This document shows, in pieces, positions 118 through 4,377 of a stretch of DNA of 4,377 bases. The DNA is taken from IMG/VR virus record IMGVR_UViG_2579778674_000005, one strand, 5' to 3'. The notes beneath the pieces were generated by a model. It ran no database searches and was not told the DNA's origin. It saw only the letters and a program-made list of their open reading frames with translations. The stretch is from a virus. Lineage: Duplodnaviria > Heunggongvirae > Uroviricota > Caudoviricetes. Within the stretch, counting starts at the first letter, position 1, and every line of letters begins with the position of its first letter. A program made the translations under genes and the position numbers.

Positions 118-282
118 ATGGGTAAAGGCAGCAGTAAGGGGCATACTCCGCGCGAAGCGAAGGACAACCTGAAGTCCACGCAGTTGCTGAGTGTGATCGA
201 TGCCATCAGCGAAGGGCCGGTTGAAGGTCCGGTGGATGGATTAAAAAGCGTGCTGCTGAACAGTACGCCGGTGCTGGACTGA
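118..282 (+). CDS. J: J N-terminal fragment (54 codons) ending at the premature in-frame TGA
   Basis: ATG at 118 with an upstream SD; translation MGKGSSKGHTPREAKDNLKSTQLLSVIDAISEGPVEGPVDGLKSVLLNSTPVLD*; TGA at 280-282 lies inside a 12-nt insertion. Confidence 0.6.
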   Translation: MGKGSSKGHTPREAKDNLKSTQLLSVIDAISEGPVEGPVDGLKSVLLNSTPVLD

Positions 283-291
283 GTGCTGGAC
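271..291. repeat. Short tandem duplication: GTGCTGGAC, TGA, GTGCTGGAC (net 12-nt insertion relative to the contiguous reading)
   Basis: Read directly: ccgGTGCTGGACtgaGTGCTGGACactgag. The encoded VLD tripeptide is repeated around a TGA codon. Confidence 0.8.
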
Positions 292-1692
292 ACTGAGGGG
301 AATACCAACATCTCCGGCGTCACGGTGGTGTTCCGGGCCGGTGAGCAGGAGCAGACACCGCCGGAGGGATTTGAATCCTCCGGCTCCGAGGCGGTGCTGG
401 GTACGGAAGTGAAATACGACACGCCGATTACCCGGACCATCACGTCGGCAAACATCGACCGTCTGCGCTTTACCTTCGGTGTGCAGGCACTGGTGGAAAC
501 CACCTCAAAGGGGGACCGGAATCCGTCGGAAGTCCGCCTGCTGGTTCAGATCCAGCGTAATGGTGGCTGGGTGACGGAAAAAGACATCACCATTAAGGGC
601 AAAACCACCTCGCAGTATCTGGCCTCGGTGGTGGTGGGTAACCTGCCGCCGCGCCCGTTTAATATCCGGATGCGCAGGATGACGCCGGACAGCACCACAG
701 ACCAGCTGCAGAACAAAACGCTCTGGTCGTCATACACCGAAATCATCGATGTGAAACAGTGCTACCCGAACACGGCACTGGTCGGCGTACAGGTGGATTC
801 GGAGCAGTTCGGCAGCCAGCAGGTGAGCCGTAATTATCATCTTCGCGGGCGCATTCTGCAGGTGCCGTCGAACTATAACCCGCAGACGCGACAATACAGC
901 GGTATCTGGGACGGAACGTTAAAACCGGCATACAGCAACAACATGGCCTGGTGTCTGTGGGATATGCTGACCCATCCGCGCTACGGCATGGGGAAACGTC
1001 TTGGTGTGGCGGATGTGGATAAATGGGCGCTGTATGTCATCGGCCAGAATTGCGACCAGTCGGTGCCGAACGGCTTTGGCGGCACGGAGCCGCGCATCAC
1101 CTGTAACGCTTACCTGACCACACAGCGCAAGGCGTGGGATGTGCTCAGTGATTTCTGCTCGGCGATGCGCTGTATGCCGGTATGGAACGGGCAGACGCTG
1201 ACGTTCGTGCAGGACCGACCGTCGGATAAGGTGTGGACCTATAACCGCAGTAATGTGGTGATGCCGGATGATGGCGCGCCGTTCCGCTACAGTTTCAGCG
1301 CCCTGAAAGACCGCCATAATGCCGTTGAGGTGAACTGGATTGACCCGAACAACGGTTGGGAGACGGCGACAGAGCTTGTTGAAGATACGCAGGCCATTGC
1401 CCGTTACGGTCGTAATGTCACGAAGATGGATGCCTTTGGTTGTACCAGTCGGGGGCAGGCACACCGAGCCGGGCTGTGGCTGATTAAAACGGAACTGCTG
1501 GAAACGCAGACCGTGGACTTCAGCGTGGGTGCGGAAGGGCTTCGCCATGTACCGGGGGATGTCATTGAAATCTGCGATGATGACTATGCCGGTATCAGCA
1601 CCGGCGGGCGCGTGCTGGCGGTGAACAGCCAGACCCGGACACTGACGCTCGACCGTGAAATCACGCTGCCAAGCCGGGCTGTGGCTGATTAA
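283..1692 (+). CDS. J: J internal fragment (frame 1), from just after the premature TGA to the stop created by the duplication frameshift
   Basis: ORF from the supplied track (GTG at 283). Its translation continues the gpJ sequence (…[33 protein letters not shown]…) and terminates at TAA 1690-1692 inside the second repeat copy, read out of frame. Whether it is translated independently is unknown. Confidence 0.7.
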
Positions 1693-1876
1693 AACGGAAC
1701 TGCTGGAAACGCAGACCGTGGACTTCAGCGTGGGCGCAGAAGGGCTTCGCCATGTACCGGGCGATGTCATTGAAATCTGCGATGATGACTATGCGGGCAT
1801 CAGCACCGGCGGGCGCGTGCTGGCGGTGAACAGCCAGACGCGGACACTGACGCTCGACCGTGAAATCACGCTGCCA
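1467..1876. repeat. Imperfect direct tandem repeat, 2 x 205 nt (copy 1 1467-1671, copy 2 1672-1876), 199/205 identical
   Basis: Manual alignment of the two copies at a fixed 205-nt offset, with no gaps. Mismatches lie at 1530, 1533, 1557, 1590, 1593 and 1635 (copy-1 coordinates). Both copies encode the same peptide, [68 protein letters not shown], in different frames. Confidence 0.9.
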
Positions 1877-3814
1877 GCCTCCGGCACCACGCTGATAAGC
1901 CTGGTTGACGGGCAGGGGAGTCCGGTCAGCGTGGAGGTTCAGTCCGTCACCGACGGCGTGAAGGTAAAAGTGAGCCGGGTTCCTGACGGTGTTGCTGAAT
2001 ACAGCGTGTGGGGGCTTAAGCTGCCGACGCTGCGCCAGCGCCTGTTCCGCTGCGTGAGTATCCGTGAGAACGACGACGGCACGTATGCCATCACTGCCGT
2101 GCAGCATGTGCCGGAGAAAGAGGCCATCGTGGATAACGGGGCGCACTTTGACGGTGATCAGAGCGGCACGGTGAATGGTGTCACGCCGTCAGCAGTGCAG
2201 CATCTGACCGCCGAAGTCACTGCAGACAGCGGGGAATATCAGGTGCTGGCGCGATGGGACACGCCGAAGGTGGTGAAGGGGGTGAGCTTTATGCTTCGCC
2301 TGACTGTGGCAGCAGACGACGGCAGTGAGCGGCTGGTCAGCACGGCCCGGACGACGGAAACCACATACCGCTTCACGCAACTGGCGCTGGGAAACTACAG
2401 GCTGACAGTCAGGGCGGCAAATGCCTGGGGGCAGCAGGGCGATCCGGCGTCGGTATTGTTCCGGATTGCCGCACCGGCAGCACCGTCGCGGATTGAGCTG
2501 ACGCCGGGCTATTTTCAGATAACCGCCACGCCGCATCTTGCGGTTTATGATCCGACGGTACAGTTTGAGTTCTGGTTCTCGGAAAAACGGATTGCTGATA
2601 TCAGGCAGGTTGAAACCAGCGCGCGTTATCTTGGTACGGCGCTGTACTGGATAGCCGCCAGTATCAATATCAAACCGGGCCATGATTATTATTTTTACGT
2701 TCGCAGTGTGAACACCGTTGGCAAATCGGCATTCGTGGAGGCTGTTGGTCAGCCGAGTGATGATGCATCCGGCTATCTGGATTTTTTCAAAGGCGAGATA
2801 GGGAAAACCCATCTGGCTCAGGAGCTGTGGACGCAGATTGATAACGGTCAGCTTGCGCCTGACCTGACTGAAATCAGGACGTCCATTACGGATGTCAGCA
2901 ATGAAATCACGCAGACCGTCAATAAGAAACTGGAAGACCAGAGTGCGGCAATTCAGCAGATACAGAAGGTTCAGGTTGATACAAATAATAACCTGAACAG
3001 CATGTGGGCTGTGAAGCTGCAGCAGATGCAGGACGGACGCCTTTATATCGCGGGTATTGGTGCCGGTATTGAGAACACCCCTGACGGCATGCAGAGTCAG
3101 GTGCTGCTGGCGGCGGACAGGATTGCGATGATTAATCCTGCAAATGGCAACACAAAACCGATGTTTGTTGGTCAGGGTGATCAGATATTCATGAATGAAG
3201 TGTTCCTGAAATATCTGACGGCTCCCACCATTACCAGCGGCGGTAATCATCCGGCATTTTCCCTGACACCGGACGGGCGACTGACGGCGAAAAATGCGGA
3301 TATCAGTGGCAGTGTGAATGCTAACGCCGGGACGCTCAACAACGTTACGATAAATGAGAACTGTCAGATTAAAGGGAAACTGTCAGCCAACCAGATTGAA
3401 GGCGATATTGTCAAAACAGTGGGTAAGGCTTTTCCGCGGGACTCCCGGGCACCGGAGCGGTGGCCATCAGGGACCATTACCGTCAGGATTTATGACGATC
3501 AGCCTTTTGACAGGCAAATTGTTATTCCGGCGGTGGCATTCTGCGGCGCTAAACATGAGCGGGAGAATAACGATATTTATTCGTCATGCCGCCTGATAGT
3601 GAAGAAAAATGGTGCTGAAATTTATAACCGTACCGCGCTGGATAATACGCTGATTTACAGTGGTGTTATTGATATGCCAGCTGGTCACGGCCACATGACG
3701 CTGGAGTTTTCGGTGTCAGCATGGCTGGTAAATGACTGGTATCCCACAGCAAGTATCAGCGATTTGCTGGTTGTGGTGATGAAGAAAGCCACCGCAGGCA
3801 TCAGTATCAGCTGA
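1655..3814 (+). CDS. J: J C-terminal fragment (frame 2); the J-homologous part starts at about 1676 and includes FN3-like repeats and a divergent C-terminal receptor-binding region
   Basis: ORF from the supplied track (GTG at 1655). From [14 protein letters not shown]… onward it repeats and then continues the gpJ sequence, ending at TGA 3812-3814. The first 7 codons are not J-derived in this frame. Confidence 0.7.
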
Positions 3815-3832
3815 ATTTTATAACCCATATAC

Positions 3833-3857
3833 GGGCGCCAGAAATGGCGCCTTTTTT
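3833..3857 (+). terminator. Rho-independent terminator downstream of J (lambda tJ-like)
   Basis: A perfect GC stem (GGCGCC / GGCGCC, palindromic) with a 6-nt loop AGAAAT, followed immediately by TTTTTTATT, begins 19 nt after the J stop. On the minus strand the hairpin is followed by CGTATAT rather than a U-tract, so it is oriented for + strand transcripts. Confidence 0.8.
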
Positions 3858-3870
3858 ATTGCAGAAAAGC

Positions 3871-3876
3871 GAGAGG
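3871..3876 (+). promoter_or_regulatory. Shine-Dalgarno sequence (GAGAGG) for lom
   Basis: GAGAGG lies 5 nt upstream of the ATG at 3882. Confidence 0.6.
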
Positions 3877-3881
3877 TAATT

Positions 3882-4377
3882 ATGCGTAAAGTTTGTGCAG
3901 CCATTTTGTCCGCAGCCATCTGTCTGGCCGTATCCGGTGCGCCTGCATGGGCGTCTGAGCAGCAGGCCACACTGAGCGCAGGGTATCTTCATGCCCGTAC
4001 GAACGCTCCCGGCAGCGATAATCTGAACGGGATTAACGTGAAATACCGTTATGAGTTTACGGACACGCTGGGGCTGATTACGTCATTCAGTTATGCCAAC
4101 GCTGAAGATGAGCAAAAAACGCATTACAGCGATACCCGCTGGCATGAGGATTTCGTGCGTAACCGCTGGTTCAGCGTGATGGCGGGGCCGTCTGTGCGCG
4201 TGAATGAATGGTTCAGCGCGTATGCGATGGCGGGTATGGCTTACAGCCGTGTGTCGACTTTCTCCGGTTCGACTTTCTCCGGAGATTATATCCGCGTAAC
4301 TGACAACAAGGGGAAAACGCACGATGTGCTGACCGGAAGTGATGACGGTCGCCACAGCAACACGTCTCTGGCGTGGG
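3882..4377 (+). CDS. lom: Outer membrane protein Lom (Ail/Lom/OmpX/PagC beta-barrel family); 3' end lies outside the window
   Basis: ATG at 3882 with SD; frame open to the window edge with no stop. Translation MRKVCAAILSAAICLAVSGAPAWA|SEQQATLSAGYLHARTNAPGSDNLNGINVKYRYEFTDTLGL… has a typical Sec signal peptide with an AWA cleavage motif and matches lambda Lom as I recall it, in the same position immediately downstream of J. It is absent from the supplied ORF track, presumably because it has no stop in the window. Confidence 0.85.
   Translation, partial: MRKVCAAILSAAICLAVSGAPAWASEQQATLSAGYLHARTNAPGSDNLNGINVKYRYEFTDTLGLITSFSYANAEDEQKTHYSDTRWHEDFVRNRWFSVMAGPSVRVNEWFSAYAMAGMAYSRVSTFSGSTFSGDYIRVTDNKGKTHDVLTGSDDGRHSNTSLAW
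4254..4283. repeat. 15-nt tandem duplication within lom (TCGACTTTCTCCGGT / TCGACTTTCTCCGGA), in frame, encoding STFSG twice
   Basis: Read directly; 14/15 identical, and the single difference (GGT vs GGA) is synonymous. As I recall it, lambda Lom has a single STFSG at this position (…SRVSTFSGDY…). Confidence 0.8.

Follow-up and report, generated by a model that had tools for sequence, protein, structure and literature searches.

The 12-nt insertion in the J gene of the stretch of DNA analysed here (4,377 nt in all, hereafter the window), together with the in-frame TGA that it carries, very probably represents an assembler mis-join, a false 'heterotype' duplication, and appears on the sequence evidence to be neither a mutation nor a biological feature. 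Relative to the closest intact allele, that of ETEC H10407 (4,145 nt), the window is longer by 232 nt, and three local duplications account for the whole of this excess (232 = 12 + 205 + 15). The first and second of them fall in J and the third in lom.

As deposited, the window comprises the 3'-terminal part of tail assembly gene I (1-57, with a TGA stop at 55-57 and aligned with the closing stretch of the I CDS annotated in ETEC H10407), a lambda-type J (tail tip/host specificity) gene (118-3814), a terminator-like hairpin followed by a T-run between J and lom (3833-3862), which is ordinary and likewise present in intact relatives, and lom, an Ail/Lom outer-membrane protein gene (3882-4377) that is cut by the contig end, all on the plus strand. 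J begins with an ATG at 118 and has its natural stop at 3812-3814, but in the ORF list it is present as three frames, 118-282 (54 aa), 283-1692 (469 aa) and 1655-3814 (719 aa). The I-J-lom synteny, the set of Pfam GpJ domains and a high identity to annotated gpJ all identify it as a lambda gpJ gene. The annotated gpJ-lom region of ETEC H10407 aligns with the window over its full length at 98.5% nucleotide identity, with 30 mismatches outside the three extra segments, and positions 1739-4252 and 4268-4377 are 100% identical to this intact allele. Lambda itself shares the I-J-lom gene order, and over the region compared (codons 1-54 and the residues past the insert) the J of the window differs from lambda J only once, by V for I at position 35. 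What separates the window from lambda J and from the prophage alleles is that the 12-nt and 205-nt duplications break its deposited gene into three ORFs; neither duplication was seen in any other J allele examined.

Positions 268-297 of the window read ccg GTGCTGGAC TGA GTGCTGGAC ACT gag. Codon 54 (GAC) occupies 277-279, the in-frame TGA follows at 280-282, and the GTG at 283 adjoins it and starts the next ORF (283-1692). The equivalent stretch of lambda J is ACGCCGGTGCTGGACACTGAGGGG, and the window has the same sequence plus 12 in-frame bases. The original prediction, that these are 12 extra nucleotides with respect to lambda J, is borne out against lambda J and against all J genes examined; the alignment with lambda J and lambdoid J genes that it called for confirms the 12 nt as extra, and the contiguous reading that it gives for lambda J proves right in both the nucleotides and the protein. 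It was also correct that the insertion keeps the frame and, for the deposited sequence, that a stop stands at 280-282 after codon 54 of J.

A repeat search reports this locus as a pair of 9-mers, 271-279 and 283-291, spaced by 12. The window has three exact direct repeats that are 9 nt or longer and spaced by 9-20, versus a mean of 0.21 in 200 dinucleotide shuffles, and three such repeats were reached in 1 of the 200; short repeats at this spacing exceed the chance expectation. The duplicated unit is, however, better parsed as 12+12 with three differences than as 9+TGA+9. In this parse copy 1, GGTGCTGGACTG (270-281, plus strand), is the end of a left piece and carries G at ref270 and G at ref281 (ref denoting positions in H10407, the alignment reference for the allele comparison described below), while copy 2, AGTGCTGGACAC (282-293, plus strand), is the start of a right piece and carries A at ref270 and C at ref281. 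The TGA thus straddles the join. The left piece closes with G281, which matches the left haplotype (GAC AGT), and the right piece opens with A282, which matches the right haplotype (CCA GTG). T280 is unexplained: all 127 natural alleles compared (127/127) have A instead. An A at 280 would give the codon AGA and no stop, so that the TGA depends on the join plus one unexplained base.

Allelic variation was assessed first with nine fetched alleles and then with 127 natural alleles (119 from IMG/VR and eight fetched records). The two 12-mers differ at three of their 12 positions, namely the first, eleventh and last. The first is a G/A polymorphism at ref270 (minor-allele fraction 0.23) and the last a G/C polymorphism at ref281 (0.22), the ten bases between ref270 and ref281 being invariant among natural alleles; the eleventh is T versus A, with A invariant across the 127. 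Since two of the three differences are common standing polymorphisms, the two copies derive from two different J haplotypes. Each side of the join also has a natural continuation elsewhere. Window 118-279 is found in another locus, where it is followed by AGTGAGGG. The J allele of strain WP8-S17-ESBL-05 matches window 282-551 at 100% identity, A282 included, and in that allele the stretch comes after AGTACGCC (...ACGCC).

The second duplication, of 205 nt, has its first copy at 1467-1671, where it ends the second piece of the window and halts just short of the polymorphic site ref1660, and its second copy at 1672-1876, where it starts the third piece; both are on the plus strand and the join between 1671 and 1672 is blunt. 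This duplication moves the frame by +1 and leads to a TAA at 1690-1692, and it is the combination of the 12-nt TGA with this frame shift that causes J to be seen as three ORFs. The 205-nt copies differ at six positions, all six of them third codon positions, and both states at each are known in natural alleles; the first difference falls exactly 63 nt into copy 2, a distance equal to the largest k tried in the assembly. Copy 2 has an exact natural match with normal flanks, and copy 1 has no exact match in the allele sample. For the piece 283-1671 the best match among complete genomes is 98.4%, which fits a chimeric path or natural mosaicism and is not decisive.

The third duplication is an in-frame repeat of 15 nt (5 codons) in lom. 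Copy 1, GTCGACTTTCTCCGG (4253-4267, plus strand), is of the G haplotype at ref4036, and copy 2, TTCGACTTTCTCCGG (4268-4282, plus strand), is of the T haplotype found in H10407; it is the first base of the 15-mers that differs, and this G/T site has a minor-allele fraction of 0.32. Here too both sides are known in other surroundings: window 4181-4267 occurs in 3 loci, where GGATTATC comes next, and window 4268-4377 in 2 loci, where AGCCGTGT precedes it.

At all three places, then, adjacent copies differ at sites of allelic (here paralogous) variation, as expected of a heterotype duplication. The joins themselves lie on such sites. The right pieces begin exactly on polymorphic positions, ref270, ref1455 and ref4036 (minor-allele fractions 0.23, 0.15 and 0.32), and the left pieces end on or just before ref281, ref1660 and ref4051 (0.22, 0.04 and 0.10), the SNP being included in the left piece at join 1 and joins 2 and 3 stopping just short of it. 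Sites adjacent to the join SNPs are invariant, and positions as polymorphic as those at the joins account for 8-11% of sites in the N-terminal region of J and for 17-22% of sites in lom. It is unlikely that the joins coincide with polymorphic sites by chance, bearing in mind that the boundaries were defined once the data had been seen and that the probability argument is for this reason post hoc.

The origin of the sequence is in keeping with a mis-join. In a search of ~15 billion proteins the 469-aa and 719-aa J fragments were each found on a single contig, AYKD01000101.1 (GCA_000511545.1), and this contig, at 4,377 bp, has the same extent as the window. It is a stand-alone contig consisting solely of the multi-copy prophage I-J-lom region. 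AYKD01 is the genome of E. coli FCH1 (PMC6455142). [quoted passage not shown] The authors report that near-identical multi-copy genes were mis-assembled and that phage and mobile-element genes were enriched in small scaffolds (PMC4270446). In E. coli genomes the window matches 2 places per genome in the median and as many as 14. The setting is therefore one prone to such artefacts, with short reads, scaffolding and a multi-copy, divergent region. Most E. coli probably carry two or more lambdoid prophages each, and FCH1 probably does so as well, with I-J-lom regions a few percent different from one another, a copy number that we infer. Look-ups of the contig list 2 samples, as they do for several unrelated contigs, and the cluster look-up counts one contig; a second listed sample, if it were an independent isolate, would make the artefact reading weaker.

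We propose that, with 90-bp reads and SOAPdenovo v1.05, the I-J-lom region would have become a tangle of allelic branches, and that the contig would be a path through this tangle with four component pieces (1-281, 282-1671, 1672-4267 and 4268-4377). At each join the assembler may have failed to merge two overlapping haplotypes and have set the start of one directly behind the end of the other, a placement that would give rise to false tandem duplications of 12, 205 and 15 nt. At join 1 the left piece would end ...GAC-T-G, where the natural sequence of the AGT haplotype is ...GAC-A-G-T, and the right piece would start A-GTG-CTG-GAC-ACT, where the natural sequence of the CCA/ACT haplotype is CC-A-GTG...; the left piece would then contribute T and G, its final two bases, to the TGA, and the right piece its opening A. 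Concatenation of genuine sequence would not yield T280, and so an extra assumption is required, the simplest being that T280 is a read error retained at a dead-end contig tip; alternatively it may be a private variant. The joins would have been made in silico, and the SOAPdenovo step responsible may have been scaffolding or gap filling. A literature search for SOAPdenovo or GapCloser producing such joins gave general statements only. J in FCH1 is very probably not inactivated, and the J genes of the strain are probably intact.

Two other accounts of the joins were considered and set aside. De Bruijn contig overlaps at k = 63 would fit the 205-nt duplication and fail for the 12-nt and 15-nt overlaps, which are below any k used, and the 63-nt coincidence is seen at only one of the three joins. 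Joins made of a repeat plus non-templated filler (9+TGA, 204+A and 14+T) were rejected on the ground that most of these fillers are haplotype-specific bases of the neighbouring piece.

Neither the 12 nt nor any of the junctions recurs elsewhere. All 4,147 complete E. coli records covering at least 80% of window 230-340 (4,147/4,147) match it in the 80-90% identity band, and among the matches listed all 30 are 99-bp places at 89.2% identity, as expected if the 12 nt are missing. Phage records give the same picture, with 97/97 in the 80-90% band and 99-bp places in 5/5 of the matches listed. No homologous J gene with the same 12 nt and without a stop, the counterexample that the original prediction had itself named, occurs in the E. 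coli or phage records. Neither GTDB representative genomes nor IMG/VR contain the exact junction 32-mer, and a relaxed pattern allowing any three bases between the 9-mers yields in GTDB genomes and IMG/VR only chance matches, in GC-rich genomes and with flanks unrelated to J. In junction-spanning BLAST searches neither the 205-nt nor the 15-nt junction is contiguous in any complete E. coli genome, and overall the three junctions were not found as contiguous sequence in 5,426 complete E. coli genomes, 50,697 phage records, IMG/VR or GTDB representatives.

The 54-aa product does occur elsewhere. Among the 10 matches listed, nine are J genes that end at a contig end and one a J gene that ends at a 100-N scaffold gap; all 10 breaks fall directly past GTGCTGGAC(A), and in no case (0/10) does a stop codon end the product. 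Short-read assemblies do break J right after GTGCTGGAC(A). A count of 892 database blocks with the 54-aa product was dropped as evidence of a break 'hot spot', as the look-up covers this exact product and no other truncation point.

False duplications of this general kind have been described. Kelley & Salzberg 2010 described duplicated overlapping contigs with a median copy identity of 98.1% (PMC2864568), and Ko et al. 2022 described heterotype false duplications in which gaps between the copies were filled incorrectly (PMC9516828). The window resembles this class in that two slightly different versions of one segment stand side by side, unmerged by the assembler, in that the copies differ at allelic sites, and in that genes would be falsely disrupted or duplicated; identity within the 205-nt pair is 97%, compared with the median of 98.1% in Kelley & Salzberg. 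There are also differences. The known class concerns diploid chromosomes, whereas the versions in the window would be paralogous copies from prophages of a bacterium, which is haploid; the window has two tiny duplicates among its three (12 and 15 nt), and its joins are without an N gap; and the class was defined by read depth and mate pairs, whereas the duplications of the window are known from sequence alone.

The alternative that fares best, improbable as we consider it, is that all three duplications are real and arose when the J-lom alleles of co-resident prophages recombined, illegitimately or by template switching, leaving a decayed, non-functional J. The decay would comprise the premature TGA, the frameshifting 205-nt duplication and the in-frame 5-codon duplication in lom. 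The sequence does stand in the public record, exchange between prophages could also supply different alleles in the copies, and prophage tail genes do decay, as in strain AW1.7, where J is interrupted by IS2; moreover, T280 is not creatable by simple concatenation. Against this, recombination would have to have made three independent non-homologous joins within 4.4 kb, each exactly on an allele-polymorphic site, in a sequence that over 1739-4252 and 4268-4377 is still identical to the intact H10407 allele. The junctions are absent from thousands of genomes, and the source is a small stand-alone SOAPdenovo repeat scaffold. A more specific form, in which the prophage J and lom of FCH1 were scrambled by repeated non-homologous template switches, each at an allelic mismatch, seems to us slightly less probable again; if true, it would hint at mismatch-triggered switching that generates heteroallelic micro-duplications.

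Genuine replication slippage, by which the 12-nt tandem duplication in J would be a recent inactivating mutation, is very unlikely. The 9-nt exact repeat, its spacing of 12 nt and its preservation of the frame do recall the short head-to-tail repeats that slippage produces, and the original prediction had offered a slippage product as one reading of the insertion. However, the units of such a duplication should be identical and of one haplotype, and those of the window are not: of the 3 mismatches in 12 positions, those at ref270 (G/A) and ref281 (G/C) are standing polymorphisms. Slippage cannot yield copies of distinct haplotypes. The claim also has to contend with the 205-nt and 15-nt duplications, which lie on the same contig and are built alike.

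It is harder still to credit that the TGA is decoded, whether by programmed readthrough, as selenocysteine or by reinitiation at GTG 283, to give a functional J. The TGA is in frame and the GTG directly next to it, and the original prediction accordingly left room for a full-length J by readthrough or reinitiation; but the frameshifting break at 1672 truncates the protein regardless, J being stopped again at 1690-1692. Recoding of UGA would call for a conserved UGA and a 3' RNA element (SECIS or readthrough signal). None of the homologs among the alleles and the E. coli and phage records compared has the TGA or the 12 nt, there is no match to an Rfam family, and the 69-nt segment that starts at 277 shows no stronger folding than its shuffles (z = 0.01).

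Equally negligible is a transposable-element footprint, in which a 9-bp target-site duplication (GTGCTGGAC) would surround a 3-nt remnant left when an IS of the kind that makes 9-bp duplications was excised. The 9-bp direct repeats on either side of a short spacer do look like a target-site duplication, but only 3 nt lie between the 9-mers, element sequence and IS ends are absent, the 12+12 parse with allelic differences at both unit ends fits better, the 205-nt and 15-nt duplications are left unaccounted for, and excision of bacterial IS elements usually leaves no such footprints.

With a mis-join as the preferred reading, the biological weight of the TGA is small, and there is no evidence for a new form of regulation or inactivation of a lambda-type tail tip gene. 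The finding serves rather as a caution, namely that the small repeat contigs of older SOAPdenovo drafts can hold two prophage alleles head to tail. Joins of this kind mimic in-frame insertions, premature stops, frameshifts and pseudogenes, and they enter protein databases as unique 'fragments', here the 469-aa and 719-aa pieces of J. They may be recognized by a signature that needs no reads: sites already known to be polymorphic distinguish the copies and also coincide with the joins.

A second duplication in J, a 205-nt tandem repeat (window 1467-1876) whose copies are joined bluntly at 1671|1672, is built like the 12-nt duplicate in the same gene. Its copies share 97% identity and are separated by six allelic differences, all of them synonymous, the first of which falls exactly 63 nt into copy 2 (63 being the largest k tried in the SOAPdenovo assembly of strain FCH1). 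The duplication shifts the reading frame by +1, leading to a TAA at 1690-1692. Further downstream, in lom, 15 nt are duplicated in frame (4253-4282), such that STFSG is encoded twice; a G/T polymorphic site distinguishes the two copies, which stem from different lom haplotypes.

At the 12-nt duplicate, window position 280 is T, as opposed to A in all 127 natural alleles compared, and it is through this T that the junction codon becomes a stop. It is also the sole base that lacks a match in any sampled haplotype.

While window 1739-4377 is identical to the reference allele of H10407 except for the extra 15 nt in lom, no match of at least 99% to window 283-1671 was found among 5,426 complete E. 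coli genomes, the best reaching 98.4%. Shorter stretches perfectly match different alleles, 282-551 that of strain WP8-S17-ESBL-05 and 1309-1532 that of H10407. Window 283-1671 may be a chimeric path across several alleles, or may reflect natural mosaicism. The 4,377-bp contig is itself recorded as present in two samples ('samples_with_this_contig: 2'), versus one contig in the cluster table; the second sample may mirror this assembly or stem from an independent isolate, for instance the farm-mate FCP1.

A terminator-like GC hairpin followed by a T-run was detected by scan in the J-lom gap (3833-3862), and a similar hairpin (aaccgcctccgggcggtttt) is visible by eye in the I-J gap (72-95), though not listed in the scan. 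Both look ordinary, because the I-J-lom layout is the same as in intact relatives.

The 54-residue N-terminal J product is indexed in 892 blocks of the collection, and among its occurrences in other draft assemblies ten places were inspected (L002, 9450-9712; L003-L011, in the final ~165 nt of each locus), all with the identical product. In these, GTGCTGGAC(A) is followed directly by a contig end or the start of a 100-N scaffold gap, and the product appears solely because such a break falls there. Immediately 3' of the break lies a common C/G SNP (position 281 of the H10407 reference allele), and J may contain a candidate break hot spot just before this SNP.
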